A program made the position numbers and the translations under genes. From a virus (taxonomy: Duplodnaviria; Heunggongvirae; Uroviricota; Caudoviricetes), in IMG/VR virus record IMGVR_UViG_2562617057_000005: DNA of 39,213 bases, one strand, 5' to 3'. Shown piece after piece: positions 1,921 to 39,213 of the stretch. Under the pieces are notes generated by a model, which ran no database searches, had not been told where the DNA came from, and saw only the letters and a list, made by a program, of their open reading frames with translations. Numbering within the stretch: position 1 is the stretch's first letter; each line of letters opens with the position of its first letter.

Positions 1921-2561
1921 TCTTTCTGCCGTGCGCTAATAGCTTTATTTCTGGTTCGTCTGATCCTCACCATGGCAATCTGATCTGCAGGGATATAGGT
2001 TGCCATCGCTCCCCAGCTTTTACTTTCAACATCTTTTTCAATCCATTCATCGCGCCCCGGTTTTTTTTCATGAGTGACATACATCACTATGTCTTTTTCC
2101 ACTCCTAACACAAAAGAACCGCTGGCCTGGCCTTCAAATTTCCCCGGATTTTCAGAAAGCAGCACAGTACCATTCTTCAGATAGACATACGCCTCGCTGA
2201 TATAGTATCCATGTTGATCAAACATACGCATCCAGGCAGAGGGGGTATCATCAGACCATGATATATCCTTATTTCTGAGGAATCTGTACATCCATTTACG
2301 CCCATATTTTCTCCATAATGCAGCGTATGCAAAAGCGCAAAGAAGTGTTGGAGGTGTCGCCAGCCACGAATTCAGACCTGCCCACATAACAGCCTGGTAA
2401 ACCATCATTGACAGCAAACCAAAAATCAGCGTCGAAAACGTCACCTCAATGGGTTTGTGATGGTTCTTCAGCCCCACGTTCGCAATAAAATAGCCGATAT
2501 AACCACTGGTGAGCGTCACCAGCGTTGCCCATGGCAGATTCAGCAAGGATGCATCAAACAT
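1917..2561 (-). CDS. hypothetical membrane protein, three predicted N-terminal TM helices plus a ~120-aa soluble C-terminal domain; candidate prophage cargo (superinfection exclusion or abortive infection-like)
   Basis: 214-aa ORF with GGAGG about 5 nt upstream of the ATG. Hydrophobic stretches at roughly residues 11-31, 40-63 and 68-83. Separated from the upstream mor operon by a hairpin terminator, so probably its own transcription unit. Confidence 0.7.
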   Translation of the reverse strand: MFDASLLNLPWATLVTLTSGYIGYFIANVGLKNHHKPIEVTFSTLIFGLLSMMVYQAVMWAGLNSWLATPPTLLCAFAYAALWRKYGRKWMYRFLRNKDISWSDDTPSAWMRMFDQHGYYISEAYVYLKNGTVLLSENPGKFEGQASGSFVLGVEKDIVMYVTHEKKPGRDEWIEKDVESKSWGAMATYIPADQIAMVRIRRTRNKAISARQKD

Positions 2562-2588
2562 ATTTCCTCCGGTGATATGTTTTTCTGC

Positions 2589-2628
2589 CAGAATAAAAAA
2601 AGCGCAACAGGTTATCCATTGCGCTTTT
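2589..2628. terminator. putative bidirectional rho-independent terminator
   Basis: A7 run, stem AGCGCAA...TTGCGCT, then T run (T7 when read on the minus strand). Sits downstream of the leftward mor operon and upstream of the 214-aa gene. Confidence 0.5.
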
Positions 2629-2655
2629 CATAAACCGGGAATTTATTGACGTTCG

Positions 2656-2847
2656 TTAACACTTTGGTGGCGGTGGTGGTGGGTTACGTAAAACTTTCCC
2701 GTAATACAAAACACAATTTTCATCAGGCCCGATATGCAGGCGCGAGTTGTCAATCAGCCTGTCGCATTCCCGGAGAACATATCTCGCCTCAGCAGAAGTC
2801 AGACCGTCAAAAAAAATGCCGGATAATTTCCATCGCCATATCTGCAT
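2656..2847 (-). CDS. hypothetical 63-aa protein with C-terminal Pro6 run, doubtful
   Basis: ATG ORF with weak AAGG ribosome-binding site between mor and the terminator; low-complexity C-terminus. Confidence 0.25.
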   Translation of the reverse strand: MQIWRWKLSGIFFDGLTSAEARYVLRECDRLIDNSRLHIGPDENCVLYYGKVLRNPPPPPPKC

Positions 2848-2911
2848 GGTCTGCCTTCTTCAGGGGGGGCGCTGTTGGGGGTTTTATAGCGCATTATCAC
2901 CTCGCTTTTGA

Positions 2912-3298
2912 TTAATCCCGGCTGTCATCCGGTTCATCATCGTCTTCGAATAACTGCCCCTGCAACCGGCTGATTTCTTCCTTTCTTACGCGCTTCACCA
3001 GGTTGTAAATCCAGGGAACTGAAACCCTGAATCTGCGGGACAGTTCGTGGTGGTTACGTCCGTTAAACGCCTCATAGATTTCACGGTCACGCTGGCTTAT
3101 CTTCCATCTCATCCCCATAGGAAAATAAACGTTTTGCCCGCCCCAGACCTGCATCATGCGGTTCGCGACGGCCTGACCAATCTGGTCGGCAACTTCGGGC
3201 TCAATATCAATAATCTCGCGAACGGTCTCAGAGGTATGCTGTGCCAGCTCCACCAGGAGTTCCGGCCCTTTACTTCGAAACTGATTCAGGTCGCTCAT
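2912..3298 (-). CDS. mor: Mor/C-family transcriptional activator (middle operon regulator-like)
   Basis: 128 aa; the segment GGQNVYFP...EIYEAFNGRNHHELSRRFRVS...YNLVKRVRK parallels Mu Mor (GGGQVYIP...FNGRN...). GGGAG ribosome-binding site upstream. Confidence 0.8.
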   Translation of the reverse strand: MSDLNQFRSKGPELLVELAQHTSETVREIIDIEPEVADQIGQAVANRMMQVWGGQNVYFPMGMRWKISQRDREIYEAFNGRNHHELSRRFRVSVPWIYNLVKRVRKEEISRLQGQLFEDDDEPDDSRD

Positions 3299-3722
3299 GT
3301 TTTACTCCCGCAGCTCTGTGCTGCCACTTCTTCAGTTTCTCAATAACACTGCTTGCCTGTTCAGTATTGAGCCAGCGCAGGGCGCTGATGCCCGTTTCCC
3401 GCTTGATCCACCGCGCTAATGCATTTTCTGAACGGTCACGAACAATGCCGGCAGCAGCCATTTCAAGCCATAGCGCACGGATTTTCCTGGACTGCGGATG
3501 GTTATCCAGCGGTAAACCGGAGCTGGCTTTTCCGGCAGGCTTAACGCGAAAGCCTTTCCTTTTCATGGATTCCAGCACGCAGTTTAGTTGTGTGGTATCC
3601 ATTCCTTTGGTTGAGGCTTTACCGGTCAGCCCCTGTAACATCTGGCGGTAGGTGTCTTCATCCATACCCAGTTCATTACGGGCAATATGAATGAGCTGGA
3701 TAAGACGTTGTTTAGTCATCAT
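3270..3722 (-). CDS. gemA: GemA-like regulatory protein (DUF1018 family)
   Basis: N-terminal KQRLIQLIHIARNELGMDEDTYRQMLQGLTGK pattern typical of Mu GemA-like proteins. Start placed at the first ATG of an ATG-ATG pair with AAGGAG upstream; the track ORF extends to 3761. Confidence 0.7.
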   Translation of the reverse strand: MMTKQRLIQLIHIARNELGMDEDTYRQMLQGLTGKASTKGMDTTQLNCVLESMKRKGFRVKPAGKASSGLPLDNHPQSRKIRALWLEMAAAGIVRDRSENALARWIKRETGISALRWLNTEQASSVIEKLKKWQHRAAGVKHERPESVSK

Positions 3723-3927
3723 CGTTGCTCCTTTTACCTGCGCCACCGATATAATCGACATATAAAGGAAGCGCCACAGGCCAGCACAGGAACATCACCG
3801 ACCAGCTAATCCAGTAGCTGGCACCACTGTAACGTGAATAAAACCCTGAACGGCGGTGCAGTTCAGCAGTACACCAACCGACAAAACAATACCAGAACAG
3901 GGCACATACAACAGATTCAGCAGTCAT
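3712..3927 (-). CDS. hypothetical small membrane protein (about 71 aa)
   Basis: Internal ATG of the 3712..4083 track ORF, with a G-rich ribosome-binding site. Hydrophobic segments (VVCALFWYCFVGW, WSVMFLCWPVALPLYV). Overlaps neighbours by about 11 nt. Confidence 0.4.
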   Translation of the reverse strand: MTAESVVCALFWYCFVGWCTAELHRRSGFYSRYSGASYWISWSVMFLCWPVALPLYVDYIGGAGKRSNDDD

Positions 3928-4147
3928 TCTGAATATCCCCCCAACTGATATGAATATTACGGGCAGCAATGACAGGGTCGTTATTCCACCATGCACCTGA
4001 CATGTATTTTTCAACCTGTTCGCGTCCGGCAATAATACCAATTGTGATCCCCGGCCTGACGTTCTTAAAAAAGGCGCGGGCAAAAAGGTATCTGGCAGAT
4101 ATTCGGCAGGCTTTTAATTTCCGGCTGTTACCTGATAGCGTAATCAT
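3917..4147 (-). CDS. hypothetical 76-aa protein
   Basis: Start overlaps the stop of the upstream DUF2786-like gene (ATGA-type coupling) with GGAGG upstream. Confidence 0.45.
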   Translation of the reverse strand: MITLSGNSRKLKACRISARYLFARAFFKNVRPGITIGIIAGREQVEKYMSGAWWNNDPVIAARNIHISWGDIQNDC

Positions 4148-4827
4148 CTGGCCTCCAGTTTCTGTTGTTCCTGCCCACTGACCGGGCGGTGCAGTCTGAC
4201 GTTCTGCCCTTCACGAAACCCCGCATAGCGCGAGGCGTCGCCATTGCGACTTCTTCCCGGTTTACGCGCCCTGGTGGTTTGCGTTTGCGGGTATTTATGT
4301 TCCAGCCACTGCTGCATCAGTTCACGTTCGTCATCGGTCAGGGCGAAGGACTGTATTTCACTGATAACGGCCAGCACCCAGCCTTCAGCAAACTGGTCAC
4401 CACGGCTGGTACGGGTGGCAGTTTTTATTCTTTTGTTCTGTGCGCTGATATATTGCTGACGCGCCTTTTTCAACTGGCGGGCCAGCACCTCCCAGGTGTA
4501 CGCAGCCAGTGCGGCCCGTTCCCGGTTGCCGTAGAACCCCACACCCGGATATGTGCCGGGGTGAATGATGGAGTTAACACCAAATGCCTCGCGGATGATG
4601 TTCATCAGGCCTGGCATGTAGCGCGGTGGACGGAGGCTGCCTGTCGGCCAGTAGTGACTGATGGTTTCATCAATATCACTCATGGCTATGTCGGAATGTG
4701 TGATGCCGTGAACATCCATCAGTTTACGGGCACGGCGCAGTGCAAGAGCGGCCTCGTGCGGGTTGCCGGATGCAGCCAGCGCCAGCAACTTTTTCAGTTT
4801 CTCAATGTGTTTATTCTGATCTGTCAT
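4144..4827 (-). CDS. DUF2786-like prophage early protein
   Basis: 227 aa; N-terminal IEKLKKLLALAASGNPHEAALALRRARKLM motif as seen in DUF2786 proteins of Mu-like prophages (family assignment from memory). Confidence 0.7.
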   Translation of the reverse strand: MTDQNKHIEKLKKLLALAASGNPHEAALALRRARKLMDVHGITHSDIAMSDIDETISHYWPTGSLRPPRYMPGLMNIIREAFGVNSIIHPGTYPGVGFYGNRERAALAAYTWEVLARQLKKARQQYISAQNKRIKTATRTSRGDQFAEGWVLAVISEIQSFALTDDERELMQQWLEHKYPQTQTTRARKPGRSRNGDASRYAGFREGQNVRLHRPVSGQEQQKLEAR

Positions 4828-4905
4828 TGTTCAGTATCTCCGGTATTTTTCTGCCGTTTCCATGCCCGGACAGCGTCGGACAGCTCTTTCAGGCTGTATG
4901 CTGCT

Positions 4906-5040
4906 TTAAGCTTTTCCCATAACCACTGTGTTGTTATGTGCATCAGCAGGGCAGCCAGGGCTGCCCCCCGTACTGAGGCATGTCGCCAGGCCAGTAAGAA
5001 TCAGTGTCCATGCGGTGATTTCCCTGAGTATGTCAGCCAT
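4906..5040 (-). CDS. hypothetical 44-aa protein with signal/lipobox-like N-terminus
   Basis: Not in the ORF track (under 60 aa). ATG with GGGAGG 6 nt upstream, directly after the stop of the MazG-like gene. Translation MADILREITAWTLILTGLATC... Coordinates by eye. Confidence 0.3.
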   Translation of the reverse strand: MADILREITAWTLILTGLATCLSTGGSPGCPADAHNNTVVMGKA

Positions 5041-5054
5041 TGAATGCCTCCCGG

Positions 5055-5351
5055 TTACTCGTTCGTGTAAATCACGCCCAGTCGTGCAGCCAGACGTTCC
5101 AGTTTTTTCTGTTTGTGGAAGTCAATCAGCCGGTCCATCCCCTGAAGGCGCAGTTGCTCTGTCATGATTTCCACGTCTGCCAGCTCTGCCGCGAGGTCAC
5201 TTTCGCTGCCCTGTCCGTTCAGATTGCGGGCAGCACTGGCCGCCAGTTCAGCGGCCTCTTCTGTCAGTTTCAGGGCCTGTGCGTCCGGCCCGAAACGCTG
5301 CAGGGCCAGACGGTAGAGGGCGGTGCGGGTGAGTTCGGTGTTTCGTGTCAT
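5055..5351 (-). CDS. MazG-like nucleotide pyrophosphohydrolase-fold protein (putative)
   Basis: 98 aa with an EEAAEL ... ELADVEIMTEQL arrangement resembling the MazG/HisE EExxE...ExxD signature. Confidence 0.5.
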   Translation of the reverse strand: MTRNTELTRTALYRLALQRFGPDAQALKLTEEAAELAASAARNLNGQGSESDLAAELADVEIMTEQLRLQGMDRLIDFHKQKKLERLAARLGVIYTNE

Positions 5352-5360
5352 GCCGCGCCC

Positions 5361-5633
5361 TCAGTGCTTCCGGCTGACGGTGATGTGCAGGCCGCCTTCT
5401 GCAGTGGTTTCCATCCGGTACGGCACCTCATGCTCTGCCGTGTGGGTGAGTGTGTTCACCAGTACCTGCAGGGCAGCCGCCTTTCCGTTGGTCGCCACAA
5501 TGGCCTGAGCGGCCATGCTGATTAGCGCCGTCAGGACGTGCTTCACATCGGTGAGGTCGCGGTATTCACACTCGTTGACATAGTGTTCAACAAGGGTTCG
5601 GGTGCGCTGTCGTGCTTCCTGTGGGGTAATCAT
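5361..5633 (-). CDS. hypothetical early protein (90 aa)
   Basis: ORF in the tightly packed leftward early operon; no recognisable motif. Confidence 0.5.
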   Translation of the reverse strand: MITPQEARQRTRTLVEHYVNECEYRDLTDVKHVLTALISMAAQAIVATNGKAAALQVLVNTLTHTAEHEVPYRMETTAEGGLHITVSRKH

Positions 5634-5824
5634 TGCGAGTCCTCCCTGTCAGGGCGGGAGAATTCCATGACGGGCACGTCCGCCGAAAAATGCTGGCTGC
5701 AGTACGGACAGACCAGGGTGACGCGCACTGCAGGTACGTGGTACTTACCGGACATCACGGCGATGGCGCTGTGAAAACGCAGGGCTGTTATATCCCTCTC
5801 GCACTGAATACATTTAAATATCAT
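5630..5824 (-). CDS. putative zinc-ribbon protein (64 aa)
   Basis: Two CxxC pairs (CIQC and CPYC); overlaps neighbour by 4 nt. Confidence 0.5.
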   Translation of the reverse strand: MIFKCIQCERDITALRFHSAIAVMSGKYHVPAVRVTLVCPYCSQHFSADVPVMEFSRPDREDSQ

Positions 5825-5921
5825 GATTTAATTCTCCTCTGTTTCCGGCGTGCAGAAGCCCACGGCGCTGACGCCGGAATAAAAAAGAAAATGTTTTTAT
5901 TAAATAATTAACGTGGTGTGT

Positions 5922-6452
5922 TTACTGCACATCCTGCTCAAAAGGAATTATTGAAAAATCCTCAATGTCACTTTTTATGGTAATACCGGGAATATTTTTC
6001 ACGGCGTCCTTTTCATTCAGGATAGCGTCTTTATTTATTTCCTCTTTTACACGAATAAAGCGCTCAAGCCCCAGACGTCTCAGTAGTTCAATAACATTAT
6101 CCGCTCCGCGAATGCTGACTGACGGCGGGCGGTTTCGCCACTGCACCTCGCCGGTGGTGAGGTTAGCAAACTTCACCTTCCCGTTGCCGGTCAGTTCATC
6201 ACGGTGTGCCTCACACCATGTCTGGATACCGGACTGCAGTTCGGCCATGCGTTTTTTCAGGCTCTCGGTGAGCGGGGCATAACGTGCGGTGATGTCGCCA
6301 ATGGCGTCATTCATTTCTGTTTCAGCCCTGACCAGTTCACGTTGTGCGTCACCGAGCAGTCTGATTCCCTCAATGACCTCTTCACGAGTCCCCGGCACCC
6401 AGAGTGCTGCTGCGGCCTTGATACGTTTTGCCCCTTTTGTACTTTTTGCCAT
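5922..6452 (-). CDS. gam: Gam-like host-nuclease inhibitor / DNA-end-binding protein
   Basis: 176 aa; matches Mu Gam along its length as I remember it (AKRIK...AAA, ETEMNDAI, WCEA(N/H)RDELT, PPSVSIRG, GLxRFIR, GITxKSxIEDFSIIPFEQ). Confidence 0.9.
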   Translation of the reverse strand: MAKSTKGAKRIKAAAALWVPGTREEVIEGIRLLGDAQRELVRAETEMNDAIGDITARYAPLTESLKKRMAELQSGIQTWCEAHRDELTGNGKVKFANLTTGEVQWRNRPPSVSIRGADNVIELLRRLGLERFIRVKEEINKDAILNEKDAVKNIPGITIKSDIEDFSIIPFEQDVQ

Positions 6453-6479
6453 ATTTTATGATTTCTCCGGTTGTGCTGA

Positions 6480-6749
6480 TTACCACAAAGATTCCGGCCA
6501 CACGACGCGACAGCCGTGCAGTTCGAAAACGCCCTGACGGAAATATCCCCTGTGGTCATGTCCGGTATACAGATAACAGGCCTTTCCCTGCTCAAGCATG
6601 CGCATGCAATGCGCACTCCGGGAAACGCGGATGACAGGTTTGTTACCCCTGATGGTGATGCTTTGTACATCCGTGTTCGTCGCCTTAAGTGCCATAATGG
6701 CCGACTGCACTTTGTTAATCTGCTGGCTGATAACTGTGATGGATTTCAT
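6480..6749 (-). CDS. hypothetical protein (89 aa), directly downstream of the B-like gene
   Basis: ORF at the position occupied by kil-type genes in Mu; Cys/His-rich C-terminal half. Confidence 0.5.
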   Translation of the reverse strand: MKSITVISQQINKVQSAIMALKATNTDVQSITIRGNKPVIRVSRSAHCMRMLEQGKACYLYTGHDHRGYFRQGVFELHGCRVVWPESLW

Positions 6750-10031: not shown

Positions 10032-10948
10032 TACTGCATGTCCTCCGGGCAGTTGATTTCAGGTTCCGGCTCGGTCAGCCAGGCAGGGATATCGTTACCT
10101 GATGGTGCGGCATCAAGGTCAAACGTCTCACGCAATGCATGAACACTGCGTTCAATCTGACAGACCAGACCGGCCATGAAATCTCTGGGGGTATCAATCA
10201 TGTGTTCAGCACAATATGCGCACAGTGTCTCAAACGCGCCGGACAGCCGGACGGCGACAGCAGATTCCGCCTCAACCGCTAATGCCGTCACTTCCGCCCG
10301 CAGCTTCTTCACCTCTTCATCAGGCTCAGGTGGCTGAATACGGGATTTCTTCTCCAGTCTGGTGGAGAGTGAGTCGATTTTTTCATTTTTGTCGGCGAGA
10401 ACACGCTGTTGTGCTGCGTTGGTTTCGCGCGCTTCACGCAGGGCCTGGCGAAGTTCGCGTACTGACATGCGATCAACGTCGTCAAGCGTCAGATCGGCAA
10501 CTGTGCCGCCGTCGGCCAGTTCGGCAAGGTCTTCATCATCCTCTAACATCAATTCGTACAGTTTTGATCTTCCCAAATGCGAAAACGTTTTCGCTTTTGA
10601 TGTCAGCTCTGGAGATAAAAACTTCAGAGCAGCTTGGGCCATTTTTTGGGCTATTCGTGGCTCAAGGTTCAGCTGTTCTTTGACGATTTGTACGTATTCT
10701 CCATGAGGTTCATTTTCCTTCAGGATAACCAAACGTTTACCTGCCTCCAGCATAGCCTCCGCACTCTGGTCCATATAAAACCGAGTTTCGTGAACGATAC
10801 GATCACGTTCATAGGGCAGGCCGTCGCCGAACTGCTGCATGATCTCCATACGATGCTGTGTCATGACATTCAGGCTGACGTTGAGATCATCAGACAGTGG
10901 CACCTCAGCATTCAGATCAGTGGTCATTGGTGATTTTGTGCGTCCCAT
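10031..10948 (-). CDS. hypothetical early protein (305 aa), acidic central region with predicted coiled coil
   Basis: ORF with AAGGAG ribosome-binding site; acidic stretch EDDEDLAELADGG and heptad-like charged region. No family recognised. Confidence 0.65.
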   Translation of the reverse strand: MGRTKSPMTTDLNAEVPLSDDLNVSLNVMTQHRMEIMQQFGDGLPYERDRIVHETRFYMDQSAEAMLEAGKRLVILKENEPHGEYVQIVKEQLNLEPRIAQKMAQAALKFLSPELTSKAKTFSHLGRSKLYELMLEDDEDLAELADGGTVADLTLDDVDRMSVRELRQALREARETNAAQQRVLADKNEKIDSLSTRLEKKSRIQPPEPDEEVKKLRAEVTALAVEAESAVAVRLSGAFETLCAYCAEHMIDTPRDFMAGLVCQIERSVHALRETFDLDAAPSGNDIPAWLTEPEPEINCPEDMQ

Positions 10949-12039: not shown

Positions 12040-12070
12040 CCGGAAAGCATTGCGCTTTCCGGTTCTGTTT
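12040..12070 (+). terminator. putative rho-independent terminator at the repressor/dam convergent junction
   Basis: Stem CCGGAAAGC / GCTTTCCGG with a 5-nt loop, followed by TTCTGTTT; ends at the dam stop codon. Confidence 0.5.
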
Positions 12071-12834
12071 CAGAAGTTGCAGATTACCAGTTCACGGCGC
12101 GGCGTGGGTTTACCTGCCAGACTGTAGTTTATATTCACCGTCTGTATATTCAGTTCAGTGAACACCTCTCGCATCTGTGGGATATCGTTCACCGAAATTA
12201 TCATCTTTCCTTTGATACACCGGGCCAGCTCTGCCAGTCGCGAGTAGTTCCCTTCAGGAAAATCCACACCATAGCCTTCCGTACCCAGGTACGGTGGGTC
12301 GCAGTAGAACAGCGTGTGCGGATGGTCATAACGCTCAATGCACTGTTGCCAGTCCATGTGTTCTATCACCGTTCTGGAAAGTCGCAGGTGTGCCGCTGAG
12401 AGCTCTTCCTCAATACGCAGCAGGTTGAAGCGTGGCGGGGATGTGGTGGAGGTGCCGAAACTATGCTCTGCCACCTTGCCACCAAACGCCTGCTTCTGGA
12501 GGTAGTAGAACCGTGCTGCACGCTGGATATCCGTCAGGGTTTCCTCCGGGGTGATCTGCAGCCATTTGTAGATCTGCCGGCTAACCAGCGCCCATTTGAA
12601 CTGGCGGACAAATTCCTCCAGGTGATGTTTTACCACCCGATACAGATTCACCAGCTCACCGTTGATGTCGTTAATGACTTCGATCCTGCCGGGTGACTTA
12701 AGAAAATAGAGCGCTGCTGCCCCACAGAACGGCTCCACATAACATTCATGCGCCGGAAACAGCGGCAGAATGTGTTTTGCCAGGCGGCGTTTGCCCCCAA
12801 TCCATGGAACGATGGGTAATGTCTGCATTTTCAT
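12070..12834 (-). CDS. DNA adenine methyltransferase, Dam family (orphan, phage-encoded)
   Basis: 254 aa; N-terminus WIGGKRRL...ECYVEPFCGAAALYF parallels E. coli Dam (WAGGK...ECLVEPFVGAGSVF); catalytic DPPY present. Confidence 0.9.
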   Translation of the reverse strand: MKMQTLPIVPWIGGKRRLAKHILPLFPAHECYVEPFCGAAALYFLKSPGRIEVINDINGELVNLYRVVKHHLEEFVRQFKWALVSRQIYKWLQITPEETLTDIQRAARFYYLQKQAFGGKVAEHSFGTSTTSPPRFNLLRIEEELSAAHLRLSRTVIEHMDWQQCIERYDHPHTLFYCDPPYLGTEGYGVDFPEGNYSRLAELARCIKGKMIISVNDIPQMREVFTELNIQTVNINYSLAGKPTPRRELVICNF

Positions 12835-33343: not shown

Positions 33344-34437
33344 CAGAACCCGATTTTATTGAACGCGATGCCGATAAAATCACGGCAGAAATGATTGCGA
33401 AGTATGAAGCGGATACCGGCAAAACGTTGTATCCGGCACAGGCAGAACGTCTGCTGATAGACCTGTGGGCCTATCGCGAAATGCTGGTCAGGGTGGCGGT
33501 ACAGGAGGCGGCGAAGCTGAATCTGGTCGCCTTTTCCCGGGAGCCGATGATTGATTACCTCGGAGAACTGGTTGGTGTATACCGCCTTGCCGCGCAGCCT
33601 GCCACCACCACACTTCAGTTCTCTGTGGATGAGGCACTGGCCATTGATGTGCTGATCCCGGCAGGCACCCGCGTCAGCGCTTCCGACAGTATTATTTTTG
33701 CCACCGATACAGATGTGGTGCTGAAGGCCGGATTGCTGCTGGTCAATGCCCCGGCCACCTGTACCGAACCGGGTACCTCTGGCAACGGCTGGCAACCTGC
33801 GCAGGTCAGTCAGTTGCTTGATGAGATTGATAACGTTGACCTGCTGGTGACCAATCTGACGGCCAGCTCTGGCGGTTCAGAGCAGGAAGACAATGACCGG
33901 CTCCGGGAGCGTATCAGGCTGGCCCCGGAGTCATTCACCAATGCCGGAAGCCGTGGTGCATACCGTTTTCATGCTATGGGGGCGCATCCCAGCATTGTTG
34001 ACGTCGCTGTTCTTTCTCCCGCTCCCGGCACTGTCGAGCTGTATCCGCTGCTCAGCACTGGTCTGCCGGACAGCGGTATCCTCACTCTGGTAGAGAGTTT
34101 CTGTTCTGACGAAAAAGTCAGACCACTCACTGATACCGTGCGGGCTAAAACACCTGTTCAGGTGGATTACACCATTGAAGCCAGGATTACGATCTATCGT
34201 GATCAGGATGCAAGGTCGGTAAAGGACAACGCTAACAGCGCCATACAGAACTGGGTGGCATCACGTGCCGCCACGCTGGGGCGCGATATTGTCCCCAGCC
34301 AGATTATCAGTGCATTGTCCGTTTCCGGGGTGTACCAGGTTGAACTGGTGACACCGGCACTGCGGGTGGTTGCAGAAAACGAATGGGCAAACTGTACGGC
34401 GATCACTCTTAACATGACAGGGGTGTCCGATGGCTGA
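33334..34437 (+). CDS. baseplate protein J-like
   Basis: 367 aa following the W-like gene, with overlapping start. Confidence 0.85.
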   Translation: MALTEPDFIERDADKITAEMIAKYEADTGKTLYPAQAERLLIDLWAYREMLVRVAVQEAAKLNLVAFSREPMIDYLGELVGVYRLAAQPATTTLQFSVDEALAIDVLIPAGTRVSASDSIIFATDTDVVLKAGLLLVNAPATCTEPGTSGNGWQPAQVSQLLDEIDNVDLLVTNLTASSGGSEQEDNDRLRERIRLAPESFTNAGSRGAYRFHAMGAHPSIVDVAVLSPAPGTVELYPLLSTGLPDSGILTLVESFCSDEKVRPLTDTVRAKTPVQVDYTIEARITIYRDQDARSVKDNANSAIQNWVASRAATLGRDIVPSQIISALSVSGVYQVELVTPALRVVAENEWANCTAITLNMTGVSDG

Positions 34438-35008
34438 GGCGCTACAACTCCCGCCACCGCTTGAGGGTGATATCAGTCTCAGAACGCTGGGAAGACTGGC
34501 CGGACGGCTGGATAACATCGACCTGAGCGTACTGATGGTCTGTCTCGTCGATATCGTCGACAGTTCCGCGCTGCCATGGCTGGGCGAGCAGTTCTCGCTG
34601 TTCGGCGATGGCTGGGAACTGGCGGAATCTGACGATGTACGCCGCATGCTTATCAAATCCGCTATCGAGCTACACCGCTATAAAGGAACACCGTGGTCAA
34701 TCCGGGAAATTATCCGCCGTTTTGGCTTCGGCGAAGTGGAGCTGATTGAAGGGACAGGGCAGATCGGCTACGACGGTAAACACAGTTACAACGGACTTTT
34801 CGTCCACGGCGATGCACAAGCCTGGGCTGTCTATCGGGTCATCCTTCAACAGCCCATCACTAATGATCAGGCGGCGCTGTTACGTCAGACGCTTGCTGCC
34901 TTTGCTCCGGCTCGCTGTCATCTGGCAAGTCTGGAATATCAGTCTGTCGCCATTCGCTACAACAGTACTACCCGTTATAACGGTAGTTACAACCACGGGA
35001 GCAGTTAA
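34430..35008 (+). CDS. tail protein I-like (baseplate wedge)
   Basis: 192 aa between the J-like and tail-fibre genes. Confidence 0.8.
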   Translation: MAEALQLPPPLEGDISLRTLGRLAGRLDNIDLSVLMVCLVDIVDSSALPWLGEQFSLFGDGWELAESDDVRRMLIKSAIELHRYKGTPWSIREIIRRFGFGEVELIEGTGQIGYDGKHSYNGLFVHGDAQAWAVYRVILQQPITNDQAALLRQTLAAFAPARCHLASLEYQSVAIRYNSTTRYNGSYNHGSS

Positions 35009-35010
35009 TT

Positions 35011-36456
35011 ATGGCAAATCTACCCGAAACCCCGCAGTGGGAAAACGGCATCTACCAGATTGAGGTCTCTGACCCCGTTCTGGGCGGACCTGACGGAATT
35101 TCTAACCGTCAGGGTAAACAACTGGCCAGCCGCACGCTGTACCTGAAGCAACAGGTTGAAAAAGGCGGGGCTGACCTTGCGAAACACATCGCGGCAGCAG
35201 ACCCGCATACCCGGTACGCACAGAAAGCCAGTCCGGCATTCACCGGCACACCAACAGCACCTACACCTGCAAATGGCGATAACAGCAAAAAGCTGGCGAC
35301 AACGGAGTTTGTGGCCAAAGCACTTGCGGCACTTGCAGGCAGCGCCCCTGAGACACTGGATACGCTTAAAGAGCTGGCTGACGCTCTCGGTAATGATCCA
35401 AACTTTGCGACTACGGTACTGAACAAGCTGGCGGAAAAGCTGGCTAAAGACCAGAACGGCGCAGATATTCCTGATCCTGCGCTGTTTGTCAAAAACCTTG
35501 GTTTACAGGAAGCGATAAATCAGGCTTCTGGCGCATTACAGAAAAACCAGAACGGCGCAGATATTCCGGGGAAAGATACCTTCACCAAAAATATTGGTGC
35601 CTGCCGCGCATATAGCGCATGGCTGAATATTGGTGGCGATAGTCAGGTCTGGACAACCGCGCAATTTATTTCGTGGCTGGAGAGTCAGGGAGCATTTAAC
35701 CATCCTTACTGGATGTGCAAAGGCTCATGGGCTTATGCAAATAATAAGGTCATTACAGATACAGGTTGCGGAAATATTTGTCTTGCAGGTGCTGTGGTGG
35801 AAGTTATTGGCACTCGCGGCGCAATGACCATACGCGTTACCACGCCGGGCACGTCCAGCGGTGGCGGAATTACTAACGCTCAATTCACTTATATTAATCA
35901 TGGTGATGCTTACGCTCCTGGCTGGCGACGAGACTACAACACGAAAAATCAACAACCTGCATTTGCTTTAGGGCAAACAGGAAGCACTGTCGGAAATGAT
36001 AAAGCTGTTGGCTGGAACTGGAATAGCGGGGTCTATAACGCAAACATTGGTGGCGCATCGACATTAATCCTCCACTTCAATATGAATACGGGGAGCTGCC
36101 CTGCTGTACAGTTCCGCGTGAATTACAGGAACGGCGGTATTTTTTATCGTTCAGCGCGTGATGGTTATGGCTTTGAAGCTGACTGGTCAGAGTTTTACAC
36201 CACAACCCGCAAACCCTCTGCGGGAGATGTTGGTGCATATACGCAGGCAGAATGTAACTCAAGGTTTATTACAGGTATTCGCCTTGGTGGTCTGTTATCT
36301 GTTCAGACATGGAATGGTCCCGGATGGTATGACAGGTCAGGTTATGTCGTTACGGGTTCAGTTAACGGAAACCGTGATGAATTAATTGATACAACTCAGG
36401 CAAGGCCAGTTCAGTATTGCATTAATGGGACGTGGTATAACGCGGGGAGTATTTAA
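35011..36456 (+). CDS. tail fibre protein (Mu S-like): constant N-terminal part plus variable C-terminal part inside the invertible segment
   Basis: 481 aa; crosses the gix-like site at about 35490-35511; C-terminal motif INGTWYNAGSI is shared with the inverted alternative copy ([12 protein letters not shown]). Confidence 0.9.
   Translation: MANLPETPQWENGIYQIEVSDPVLGGPDGISNRQGKQLASRTLYLKQQVEKGGADLAKHIAAADPHTRYAQKASPAFTGTPTAPTPANGDNSKKLATTEFVAKALAALAGSAPETLDTLKELADALGNDPNFATTVLNKLAEKLAKDQNGADIPDPALFVKNLGLQEAINQASGALQKNQNGADIPGKDTFTKNIGACRAYSAWLNIGGDSQVWTTAQFISWLESQGAFNHPYWMCKGSWAYANNKVITDTGCGNICLAGAVVEVIGTRGAMTIRVTTPGTSSGGGITNAQFTYINHGDAYAPGWRRDYNTKNQQPAFALGQTGSTVGNDKAVGWNWNSGVYNANIGGASTLILHFNMNTGSCPAVQFRVNYRNGGIFYRSARDGYGFEADWSEFYTTTRKPSAGDVGAYTQAECNSRFITGIRLGGLLSVQTWNGPGWYDRSGYVVTGSVNGNRDELIDTTQARPVQYCINGTWYNAGSI
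35451..35471 (+). repeat. 21-bp perfect direct repeat, copy 1 (CCAGAACGGCGCAGATATTCC)
   Basis: Identical to 35547..35567; encodes QNGADIP in the fibre gene. Confidence 0.6.
35490..35511. repeat. gix-like recombination site, left (CAAAAACCTTGGTTTACAGGAA)
   Basis: Inverted repeat of the site at about 38561-38582 (20 of 22 positions); resembles the Mu gix core (TTCCTGTAAACCGAGGTTTTGGATAA) as I remember it. Confidence 0.7.
35547..35567 (+). repeat. 21-bp perfect direct repeat, copy 2
   Basis: Identical to 35451..35471; lies inside the invertible segment, copy 1 outside. Confidence 0.6.
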
Positions 36457-36458
36457 CG

Positions 36459-36992
36459 ATGATGCACTTAAAAAACATTTCTGCTGGTAATCCTGAAACA
36501 AAAGAGCAATACCAGCTAACAAAGCAATTTAACATCAAATGGCTTTATACAGAGGATGGGAAAAACTGGTATGAGGAGCAAAAGAACTTTCAGCCTGATA
36601 CGTTGAAAATGGTCTATGACCACAACGGCGTTATTATTTGTATTGAAAAGGATGTTTCAGCAATTAATCCGGAAGGCGCAAGCGTCGTTGAGGTTCCTGA
36701 TATTACAGCAAATCGCCGGGCTGATATTTCAGGTAAATGGATGTTCAAAGATGGCGTAGTGATAAAGCGAACTTATACCGGGGAAGAGCAGAGGCAACAG
36801 GCGGAAAATGAAAAGCAAAGCCTGCTACAGCTCGTCAGGGATAAAACCCAGCTGTGGGACTCACAGCTACAGCTGGGCATCATTTCCGCCGGGAATAAGC
36901 AGAAATTAACCGAGTGGATGCTCTACGCGCAGAAGGTCGAATCCACAGACACCTCCAGTCTGCCAGTAACGTTTCCCGAACAACCAGAATGA
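36459..36992 (+). CDS. tail fibre assembly protein (Mu U-like)
   Basis: 177 aa; homologous to the inverted 37021..37548 gene (both begin MMHLKNI.AGN). Confidence 0.85.
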   Translation: MMHLKNISAGNPETKEQYQLTKQFNIKWLYTEDGKNWYEEQKNFQPDTLKMVYDHNGVIICIEKDVSAINPEGASVVEVPDITANRRADISGKWMFKDGVVIKRTYTGEEQRQQAENEKQSLLQLVRDKTQLWDSQLQLGIISAGNKQKLTEWMLYAQKVESTDTSSLPVTFPEQPE

Positions 36993-36996
36993 AACA

Positions 36997-37016
36997 AGGC
37001 CCGATATCGGGCCTTA
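36997..37016. terminator. bidirectional rho-independent terminator between convergent fibre-assembly genes
   Basis: Perfect 20-bp palindrome AAGGCCCGATATCGGGCCTT followed by AATTTTT; A-rich on the other side. Confidence 0.6.
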
Positions 37017-37020
37017 ATTT

Positions 37021-37548
37021 TTACTCAGGCTTTTGTGGCCATTCTGGCTTTGCCGTATCCACACGGCTGACCAGAACACTGTAGCGTTCCCATGCTTCCA
37101 GTCGTGTGCGTTCCTCGTCCGTCGCCATATTCAGCCTGACAGCGCGTTCCAGCGGCTGGATGACTGATTCAGCTTCGGAAAGCAATGCGGCCTTTTGTGA
37201 TTCGGCCTGTTGTTGCTGTTCGTCAGCCGTATAAATCCGTTTAACCACAGCTCCGTCCTTAAACATCCACTTACCGGAATCATCAGCACGACGATTAGCT
37301 GTAATATCAGGAACCTCAACGACGCTATAACCTTCAGGGTTAAGCGTGGAGGCATCTTTGGTGATGGCGACAATAATATTATTTGCATCGTAAACAATCT
37401 TTATTGTGTCTGGCTGAAAGTTCTTCACTTCCTCATACCAGTTTTTTCCGTCCTCAGAGTAAAGCCAGATGACTCCGTGCTTCTTTGTTAACTCATACTG
37501 CTCCACTGTTTTAGCATTACCTGCTTTTATGTTCTTTAAGTGCATCAT
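37021..37548 (-). CDS. alternative tail fibre assembly protein (Mu U'-like)
   Basis: Start at the [10 protein letters not shown] Met pair of track ORF 37021..37581; paralogue of 36459..36992. Confidence 0.8.
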
Positions 37549-37549
37549 A

Positions 37550-38560
37550 TTAAATACTCGCCACATTATACCAGGTGCCATTTATATACTTTTGCACTGG
37601 CCTGTAATGAACGCCTGCAATATTATCGGCAGAGTTTTTTCCGGTATCCTGTACGTTAATCCCCGTCAGTACATAGCCTGACGGGCACTGAAAATTCCAT
37701 GTTTGCCAGTTGTTCACTCCATAATATTGCTGTGAACCAAGCCGGACATCTTTCACATATCTGGAATCAAAATTGCCATAGTTGCCGGGAATAACTTGCG
37801 AGCCGCAAAGCCAGTTCCCGTTATTATCCATGTACGCCTGACCATCGGTGCCATTGGCTGTCCTTGAGTTATTAATCATGTAGATGCCAAATTGCTTATT
37901 TCCCAGACCGCCAATCATAAATTTGCGGTCGGCATGGTCCTGACGGAGCAAAGCCTGAGCACCATCAGTGGATACCGCATTACGGCCCAGAATAACATTC
38001 TGGTCACGCATATGAATCCACATGCCGGTACTACTGTTAATTGCAAAACGGTTTGCAAATATATCCCCTGTAACATCAAGACCATGCCCCATGCTTATCC
38101 GGCCAGTTCTGAGATTAAGCGTAAAGGGGCGTAGTGGCCCTATATTACCATTTTCCCCTTCATTCTCTCGTGTAGGGATGATATGCAGGCATTCTTCAGA
38201 ACGACGAAAAATGGCACCAAAAGATGAATTAAATATCCTCAGTGCATTGACTGTCGATATTTTCACTTCACTGCTGAAAAGGGCTTCAACAAGAACAGAC
38301 AAAGCATTCCATTTAAGATTCATCAGGTCTTTAGGCCGGGTGCCAATGATGCGGTGTCTCCATTTGAAATATTCATTGCCGTTGTTGCCTGTTTCAAACC
38401 ACATGTAGGAATCGGTGTCTGCATCCGAATTATTTTTAAACCCAATCTTTGCCCAGTCAGTATTTCGAATCCAGGCAAGGATTGAGTCGTTTTCAAAAGT
38501 AAGTCCACCGGACAAGGTATCGCCTGTCTTTTGGACAGCGTTATCAGCCTTGTTTACCGT
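37550..38560 (-). CDS. alternative tail-fibre variable C-terminal segment (Mu S'v-like); no own start, expressed after inversion
   Basis: Open frame runs through the right gix-like site in the same phase as the fibre gene through the left site (both read GLQE across the core); ends [12 protein letters not shown]. Confidence 0.8.
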
Positions 38561-38582
38561 TTCCTGTAAACCAACGTTTTCG
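38561..38582. repeat. gix-like recombination site, right (TTCCTGTAAACCAACGTTTTCG)
   Basis: Inverted copy of the left site. Confidence 0.7.
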
Positions 38583-38631
38583 TCTTTATCCCTACCTATA
38601 CCAACTATGTATTTTTCACGAAACAAAGAGG

Positions 38632-39213
38632 ATGTTTTTTATGCAAATTGGCTATATTCGTGTGTCAACAAATGACCAGAACACGGATTTACAACGCAAT
38701 GCACTGAACTGCGCAGGATGTGAACTGATTTTTGAAGATAAAATCAGCGGAACGAAATCAGCCAGACCGGGATTGAAAAAACTGCTCAGAACGCTATCAG
38801 AAGGAGATACGCTGGTTGTCTGGAAGCTGGACAGACTGGGCAGAAGTATGAAACACCTGATCACGCTTATTGAGGAATTGCGGGAAAAAGGTGTTAATTT
38901 CCGTAGTCTGACGGACAGCATTGACACATCAACACCCATGGGGCGTTTCTTTTTTCACGTCATGGGGGCTTTAGCCGAAATGGAACGTGAATTAATTGTA
39001 GAGCGTACACTGGCCGGACTGGCAGCAGCACGTGCACAGGGGCGTATTGGTGGACGTCGTCCGAAACTGACAAAAGAGCAACATGAACAAATAGCAAGGC
39101 TGATCAAAAATGGCTATAGCAGGAAACAGTTGGCAATTATTTACGATATCGGTATATCGACGATTTATCGTTATCACCCTGTAGAGGAACTTCAAACTCA
39201 AGCTGAGTTGTAA
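38632..39213 (+). CDS. gin: serine recombinase DNA invertase, Gin/Pin/Cin/Hin family
   Basis: 193 aa, complete (stop at 39211-39213). MQIGYIRVSTNDQNTDLQRNAL...VVWKLDRLGRSMKHLI...GRFFFHVMGALAEMERELI..GRIGGRRPKLT matches Mu Gin closely as I remember it; catalytic Ser in YIRVST. Confidence 0.95.
   Translation: MFFMQIGYIRVSTNDQNTDLQRNALNCAGCELIFEDKISGTKSARPGLKKLLRTLSEGDTLVVWKLDRLGRSMKHLITLIEELREKGVNFRSLTDSIDTSTPMGRFFFHVMGALAEMERELIVERTLAGLAAARAQGRIGGRRPKLTKEQHEQIARLIKNGYSRKQLAIIYDIGISTIYRYHPVEELQTQAEL

Follow-up and report, generated by a model that had tools for sequence, protein, structure and literature searches.

The right end of the window, by which we mean the whole 39,213-nucleotide stretch of DNA analyzed here (IMG/VR record IMGVR_UViG_2562617057_000005), carries a tail fiber gene, two inverted recombination sites, two fiber assembly (chaperone) genes, an alternative fiber end, and a gene for a DNA invertase, which together make up an invertible tail fiber cassette. 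The coordinates of these features are given in Table 1. The constant N-terminal part of the fiber (Sc) lies outside the invertible segment, whereas the modules Sv-U and U'-Sv' face each other inside it; each of the two variable parts has its own chaperone, and both possible fusions to Sc are in frame. This arrangement, in which a fiber C-terminus and an assembly gene are opposed by an alternative pair whose fiber part has no start codon, had been proposed in an earlier reading of the sequence (the original prediction) and was borne out by the open reading frames (ORFs). The hairpin between the two convergent chaperone genes has a folding energy of -17 kcal/mol (z = -4.4), and 0 of 200 shuffled sequences folded as well.

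Table 1 Features of the invertible tail fiber cassette and of its carrier prophage (positions refer to the window; aa, amino acids)
Feature	Position	Strand	Remarks
S, expressed tail fiber	35011-36456	+	ORF of 481 aa
Sc, constant N-terminal part of S	35011-35497	+	162 aa; fuses to whichever variable part faces it
Left site, gix-like	35486-35511	+	TTGTCAAAAACC-TT-GGTTTACAGGAA; crossover core TT at 35498-35499
Sv, variable fiber C-terminus, currently expressed	35500-36456	+	Weak Pfam gp37_C match
U, fiber assembly chaperone paired with Sv	36459-36992	+	177 aa; Pfam Caudo_TAP, E = 1.7e-35
Bidirectional terminator hairpin between convergent U and U'	36996-37015	both	Terminator-like on each strand
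U', alternative chaperone, silent in the present orientation	37021-37548	-	175 aa; Pfam Caudo_TAP, E = 2.5e-37
Sv', alternative fiber C-terminus, silent	37550 to about 38572	-	Without a start codon of its own
Right site, gix-like	38561-38586	-	AAGACGAAAACG-TT-GGTTTACAGGAA; core at 38573-38574
Ribosome-binding site AAGAGG of the invertase gene	38626-38631	+	9 nt before ATG 38641, 0 nt before ATG 38632
DNA invertase, Din group (Gin/Cin/Hin) serine recombinase	38641-39213	+	190 aa; last prophage gene
Putative recombinational enhancer, 5' end of the invertase gene	38662-38725		Two 15-bp Fis-core motifs G-N13-C
Fis-core motif 1	38662-38676		GTGTCAACAAATGAC; gene nt 22-36
Fis-core motif 2	38711-38725		GCGCAGGATGTGAAC; gene nt 71-85
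D12-class (Dam-type) adenine methyltransferase	12070-12834	-	Early region
Complete BcepMu-like transposable prophage of Escherichia coli, about 37.7 kb	1581-39213 and 78 bp past the window end

A search of the whole window with the 20-mer AAAACCTTGGTTTACAGGAA gave one match without mismatches on the plus strand (35492-35511) and one with a single mismatch on the minus strand (38561-38580). No further copy was found in the window at three or fewer mismatches, and none of 100 dinucleotide-preserving shuffles yielded a match. The inverted 22-bp arms that had been predicted near 35490-35511 and 38561-38582 are present and agree at 20 of their 22 positions, and the roughly 3.1 kb that they were said to flank corresponds to a measured interior of 3,049 bp between the sites. 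Both sites are 26 bp long, inverted relative to each other, and composed of two 12-bp half-sites around an identical 2-bp TT core. The inner half of both, GGTTTACAGGAA, equals the half-site of Mu gix exactly, and the left outer half TTGTCAAAAACC and the TT core are common to phages and prophages that share the backbone of the carrier prophage (referred to as backbone relatives). The outer half of the right site has diverged strongly from Mu gix, and the same right site is kept in all sister copies of the prophage, the inverted ones included. This outer half, AAGACGAAAACG, recurs together with the invertase lineage of the window at the right end of the E. coli backbone relatives (92-96% DNA identity), and a phage-like plasmid likewise carries an invertase and a right outer half-site of the window type (92-96% DNA identity). 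Because the outer halves, the core, and the invertase track the backbone relatives, while the inner halves and the interior track the Mu G segment, the sites are by sequence affiliation hybrids, with outer halves, core, and invertase from the backbone lineage and with inner halves and interior of the Mu-G type. A degenerate search for the palindromic core revealed no third site in the window, and with just two sites the system is a simple two-state one and not a shufflon. Separately, a direct repeat of 26 nt (96% identical), with copies at 35446-35471 in Sc and 35542-35567 in Sv that are 96 bp apart and encode KDQNGADIP and KNQNGADIP, respectively, flanks the left site. Recombination between these copies would remove the left site in frame and lock the fiber in its present state.

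Across the core, both fiber frames encode GLQE, as the original prediction had stated, and inversion of 35498-38574 in silico produced the in-frame fusion that it foresaw, namely an Sc-Sv' fiber of 503 aa with U' beginning 1-4 nt past the stop codon. A 503-aa fiber, with a Gp34_trimer domain, has been called publicly in an inverted sister prophage (L010). Sc is 88-96% identical at the amino acid level to the fiber N-termini of backbone relatives in Pantoea, Mixta, Erwinia, and Limnobaculum, and it is unrelated to Sc of Mu (33% identity over 60 aa). NCBIfam offered no specific model for the fiber parts or the invertase, all matches being below the cut-off. In several sister copies (L006, L008, L009, and L102), Sc is interrupted at the equivalent of window 35167-35177 by an insertion sequence (IS) of ~1.3 kb with a DDE_Tnp_1 transposase, which is accompanied by an 11-bp duplication and inactivates the fiber gene.

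The invertase contains the Pfam domains Resolvase (E = 1.5e-51) and HTH_7 (E = 1.3e-13), and its best matches among solved structures were those of Mu Gin (4M6F and 3UJ3; E about 1e-91 over residues 1-183), compared with E about 1e-32 for the structure of gamma-delta resolvase. It shares 72% identity with Gin, 72% with Cin, and 83% with the invertase of a P2-like E. coli prophage. At the positions corresponding to residues 6, 8, and 10 of Hin the protein has Y, R, and the nucleophile S, and at 139 and 140 it has G and R; positions 47, 48, and 51 of helix B are K, K, and R, and positions 151, 154, and 155 are Q, R, and L. In Hin, residues 47, 48, and 51 as well as Q151, R154, and L155 contact the enhancer DNA and Fis, and they are conserved in enhancer-dependent invertases but not in resolvases (PMC3798978). 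The full-length match to the Gin structure, together with the retention of all catalytic and Fis- or enhancer-contacting residues, agrees with the intact Gin-family invertase of the original prediction. The enzyme also lies where it had been placed, about 50 bp outside the right site, but its proposed length of 193 aa did not hold: the gene almost certainly starts at ATG 38641, 55 bp past the end of the right site, and encodes 190 aa, the 193-aa ORF being a mechanical reading. We prefer this start because the ribosome-binding site is properly spaced from it (9 nt), the N-termini of Gin and Cin align there, and public gene calls give 190 aa. A lookup of the 193-aa product in public assemblies returned no record, since gene callers use the 190-aa start. 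In one sister prophage (L008), the invertase is split into pieces of 110 and 77 aa.

The 5' end of the invertase gene contains two Fis-core motifs at the same gene positions as in Mu gin, from which each differs by 1 nt, and both fall within the annotated enhancer interval of P1 cin (cin nt 19-90). They are 49 bp apart from center to center, and the first begins 88 bp from the center of the right site. For comparison, the Hin enhancer is 65 bp long, is bounded by Fis sites, and lies about 100 bp from hix (PMC3798978). The two motifs likely form a recombinational enhancer; we keep to this wording because the protein code imposes part of their nucleotide conservation. The distance from the site center to the start codon is 67 bp in the window, Mu, SfMu (a Shigella phage), and the P2-like prophage, and the spacer of the window (38587-38640) has no sequence relationship to the spacers of the other three.

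Sister prophages were identified by an exact-match lookup, in public assemblies, of the baseplate protein encoded upstream of the fiber gene (window 34430-35008), and the comparisons below are based on the handful of assemblies thus obtained. No RefSeq complete E. coli genome carries the Sc of the window together with its cassette. One copy (L007; contig AAKB02000001.1 of assembly GCA_000167915.2) is 100% identical to the window over flank, segment, and invertase. The segment has the orientation of the window in L006, L007, and L008, and it is inverted in L009, L010, and L012, the last being a contig end. Over the flanks of the segment (2,152 bp on the left; 627 bp on the right, with the invertase gene), the complete loci L006, L007, L009, and L010 show 100% identity to the window, and L008 shows 99.8-100%. 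When L006 was inverted in silico at the TT cores, the 3,221 bp compared agreed with L009 and with L010 at every position (0 mismatches). In the inverted copies the outer half-sites keep their place while the sequences inside change sides. This confines the exchange to the 14 bp TTGGTTTACAGGAA that both sites have in common, and this stretch coincides with the canonical cutting position of Din invertases. Hence, the segment inverts naturally by exchange at the cores. Moreover, L006 and L009 have the Sc IS in common but differ in orientation, which indicates that flipping went on after the insertion of the IS. A single orientation throughout deep long-read data, or disrupted cores in close relatives, had been named in the original prediction as evidence that would count against it; we found both orientations in public prophages with 100%-identical flanks and invertase genes, and intact TT cores in every examined copy of the window lineage.

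Three short-read contigs (L012, L013, and L014) end at or near the equivalent of window 35474-35529, within a few bases of the left site. A reading of these ends as mixed orientation within the samples was dropped, because the same cassette is repeated in other prophages of those genomes and repeated cassettes break assemblies likewise. The fiber segments of Mu, P2-like, and e14 prophages of E. coli flip continuously in clonal cultures, as demonstrated by sequencing and PCR (Goldberg et al., PMC4272514), and by analogy continuous flipping in culture would also be expected for the segment of the window.

Mapping of both flanks onto prophage-free E. coli genomes located the ends of the carrier prophage. 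Positions 1-1580 of the window are E. coli chromosome (clcA, yadX) and 100% identical to K-12, so that the left junction lies at 1580/1581. The right flank, which is available in L007 (junction at 10862/10863), is 100% identical to K-12 from 79 bp after the invertase stop codon. The prophage is thus inserted between clcA/yadX and hemL. It has TG...CA ends, a 6-bp target duplication (ACGAGT), and repeated CGTGAGATAA(A)T motifs near both ends; the TG...CA ends and the duplication mark it as a complete transposition product. A BLAST with short words, aimed at terminal inverted repeats, gave nothing useful. In its backbone the prophage shares 93-95% identity with Escherichia phage PhiKM, a member of Bcepmuvirus according to GenBank, and 84-88% with Klebsiella phage KP12. 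Genes for Mor, GemA, Gam, an AAA ATPase, an rve transposase, and Dam are on the minus strand, while the late genes, with a baseplate of the P2 J/I type, are on the plus strand; a terminase is also present. The phage ends 78 bp beyond the invertase gene, and com and mom are absent there. As a side observation, the prophage has a D12-class methyltransferase gene in the early region, and it lacks the com and mom genes that Mu and SfMu carry after the invertase.

The opposite-strand early genes, the P2 J/I-type baseplate, the non-Mu Sc, and the absence of com and mom all set the prophage apart from the genus Muvirus. Judged by this gene content, the carrier is a BcepMu-like phage and not Mu, and the Mu-type part is the cassette interior only. 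The original description of the cassette as Mu G-segment-like is accordingly accurate for the interior of the segment, which has 89% DNA identity with Mu and the inner half-sites of Mu gix, but does not extend to the phage that carries it. DNA similarity between KP12 and the window ends at the left site, and similarity to the P2-like E. coli prophages begins there.

In view of these data, we consider it highly probable that the cassette is a working two-state host-range switch of the Gin/gix type on a complete BcepMu-like E. coli prophage. With regard to inversion, the functional switch of the original prediction is upheld by the integrity of sites, cores, in-frame ends, chaperones, invertase, and enhancer motifs, and by the occurrence of both orientations in nature. 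In the proposed mechanism, invertase dimers would bind both 26-bp inverted sites, and host Fis on the intragenic enhancer would join them in an invertasome. Both sites would be cut at the central TT, one half would be rotated by 180 degrees, and religation would leave the segment flipped. Sc would thus be fused in frame via GLQE either to Sv, giving the 481-aa fiber with chaperone U, or to Sv', giving the 503-aa fiber with chaperone U', and a lysogen population would give rise to virions with two different receptor-binding tips. By analogy with the Gin, Hin, and Cin literature, we infer that the reaction depends on Fis, proceeds by subunit rotation, and uses the invertase of the phage itself, and that the two forms truly differ in host range. 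For Mu, host range does differ between the two states: E. coli K-12 is infected by the G(+) form, while the hosts of the G(-) form include E. coli C, Citrobacter, Shigella sonnei, and Erwinia (PMC4406740).

Several observations weigh against a switch of this kind. The right outer half-site agrees with the Mu half-site at 6 of 12 positions, and a G replaces the C next to the core; the authors of the SfMu study suspected that such a one-sided change beside the core may block inversion (PMC4406740). SfMu itself, whose fiber tips are 94-98% identical to those of the window, had a single host range in the reported tests (PMC4406740). No sigma-70-like consensus promoter was found upstream of the invertase of the window in a promoter scan, and P2-like prophages with Gin-like invertases are present as well in some of the genomes that contain an inverted copy.

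The last two of these observations fit an explanation in which the flipping is catalyzed in trans by invertases of co-resident P2-like, Mu-like, or e14-type prophages, the phage's own enzyme being dispensable, poorly expressed, or inactive on the right site. Gin, Cin, Pin, and Hin are interchangeable, and BcepMu-like copies do share the genomes GCA_900448215.1 (L009 with L104 and L105) and GCA_031665545.1 (L101 with L102) with P2-like prophages that have near-identical cassettes and invertases of their own. However, the flipped copies carry an intact invertase ORF with 100% identity, and all residues for catalysis and for contact with Fis and the enhancer are kept. In addition, the invertase lineage and the right outer half-site are conserved together (92-96% at the DNA level) in the E. 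coli backbone relatives and the phage-like plasmid, and this joint conservation speaks for enzyme and site being maintained by selection as a functional pair. We therefore regard catalysis solely from outside as improbable; if true, it would alter which enzyme drives the switch but not the identity of the element.

The switch of the window copy could also be a frozen relic: its right outer half-site is weak and has a G instead of C next to the core, the SfMu authors voiced the matching concern, and the orientation differences, known from a handful of assemblies, would have been left by rare historical events. Against this stands the finding of the same allele in both orientations with 100%-identical flanks, and also with a common Sc IS (L006 versus L009). 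Both orientations at near-zero divergence imply that inversion was very recent relative to sequence divergence, and the natural inversions in the window lineage show that the C-to-G change beside the core does not block the reaction. A relic is for these reasons very improbable. The chance that the two orientations arose by RecA-dependent recombination of imperfect inverted repeats, or by assembly error, is close to negligible: an imperfect inverted repeat of 52 nt (75% identity) does surround the sites and reach into the segment, but the perfect shared stretch at the exchange is only 14 bp, which is shorter than assembler k-mers and compares with a minimum identity usually quoted as roughly 25 bp for RecA-dependent exchange, and the breakpoints fall on the canonical crossover site beside a dedicated invertase.

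Near-identical G-type cassettes (94-98% DNA identity) occur in E. coli and Shigella-type genomes on three unrelated backbones, namely BcepMu-like, P2-like, and Mu-like. An identical U of 177 aa is encoded in BcepMu-like, P2-like, and true Mu-like (com- and mom-bearing) prophages (L100-L106), which sometimes share one genome. The exchange of fiber cassettes as modules among Mu, P1, P2, and p15B has long been described. In E. coli ST131, homologous fiber segments invert and move between P88-like and phiE255-like (BcepMu-type) prophages (preprint 10.1101/2022.05.07.487787). The sister prophages L006, L008, L009, L010, and L102, whose flanks match the window at 99.8-100%, differ from it by 88-104 substitutions and 0 indels, all of them inside the invertible segment (35500-38500), and the allele of the window is closer to the cassette of a P2-like prophage (L101, 98.1% identity) than to those of its own sisters. 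This restriction of the differences to the segment and the closer match outside the lineage suggest gene conversion or cassette exchange between co-resident prophages.

The core dinucleotide was TT in the BcepMu-like copies examined and TC in the P2-like and Mu-like ones. Productive exchange needs matching cores, and the TT/TC difference could consequently insulate co-resident prophages from mutual recombination. As a speculation that has a minor though real chance of being correct, co-resident phages may exchange cassettes at the sites or close to them, with the core dinucleotides acting as an orthogonality code. Such a code would permit the sharing of trans-acting invertases and yet keep these enzymes from recombining one prophage with another, a reaction that would otherwise lead to large inversions or deletions of the chromosome.

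In practical terms, the fiber gene of this prophage should be annotated as a switchable pair, and assemblies of lysogens may legitimately differ in the orientation of the segment. The cassette is a clean natural case of a Mu-type host-range module that has been moved to a transposable phage of the BcepMu type. For the engineering and typing of temperate phages of E. coli and Shigella, it indicates a modular and bistable receptor specificity in the lineage of the window. Beyond annotation the importance is limited: as far as its sequence goes, the system is a textbook one, and its cassette alleles are near-identical to those of the published SfMu.

The G segment of Mu, and also that of D108, has the same architecture, with Sc outside, convergent modules, 26-bp inverted sites, the invertase beyond the right site, and an enhancer at the 5' end of the invertase gene, which in the window is putative. 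The segment of the window aligns with the opposite strand of the Mu reference record and, going by this alignment, is in the G(-) state relative to that record. Correspondingly, at the amino acid level Sv is 97% identical to Mu Sv', U 96% to Mu U', U' 90% to Mu U, and Sv' 66% to the C-terminal part of Mu S. Mu differs from the window in its TC core (TT in the window), both outer half-sites, its Sc, the com and mom genes downstream, and Gin, which is 72% identical to the invertase of the window. Furthermore, the MuA/MuB early operon of Mu is co-oriented with the late genes and the Mu baseplate consists of gp45-48, whereas the carrier of the window cassette has its early genes on the opposite strand and a baseplate of the P2 J/I type.

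The C segments of P1 and P7 and the cassettes of P2-like phages and prophages (P88, PhiR68_1, and L096) share 88-93% DNA identity with the window (P7 about 91%). Like the window, the Cin/cix system of P1 has a TT core, and its enhancer is annotated at the place in the invertase gene that the two Fis-core motifs occupy in the window; it differs in its inner half-sites (GGTTTAAGAGAA), its Sc, and the position of the invertase at the opposite side of the segment. The P2-like copies of E. coli prophages have TC cores, unlike the TT of the window, and a different Sc.

The backbone relatives (KP12, prophages of Pantoea, Erwinia, and Limnobaculum, and E. coli A31) share with the window the Sc, the left outer half-site, a TT core at the same codon, and the position of the invertase as the last gene. 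Their cassettes, however, are short (1.6-2 kb) or multi-fragment and have other inner half-sites, and the relatives outside E. coli possess another invertase lineage (67-72% amino acid identity to that of the window) and the right outer half TTTCCAAAAACC. The E. coli A31 locus (L099, NZ_CP028744.1, locus 2509-6646), which has the backbone and the invertase lineage (94%) of the window, contains several reverse-strand fiber fragments, of which one is annotated without an N-terminus, and may represent a shufflon-like form of the switch with multiple segments.

Among named phages, the closest set of cassette alleles is that of SfMu, whose segment is 95% identical in DNA and is recorded in the same orientation. 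Sv is 94% identical to ORF49, U 98% to ORF50, U' 93% to ORF51, and Sv' 98% to ORF52 at the amino acid level, and the SfMu cassette shows the same pattern of identities to Mu as that of the window (PMC4406740). One of its sites likewise bears a C-to-G change beside the core. Unlike the carrier of the window cassette, SfMu belongs to Muvirus proper, with Gin, com, and mom, and its cores are TC. The SfMu study did not demonstrate inversion (PMC4406740), whereas in the lineage of the window the segment is seen in both orientations.

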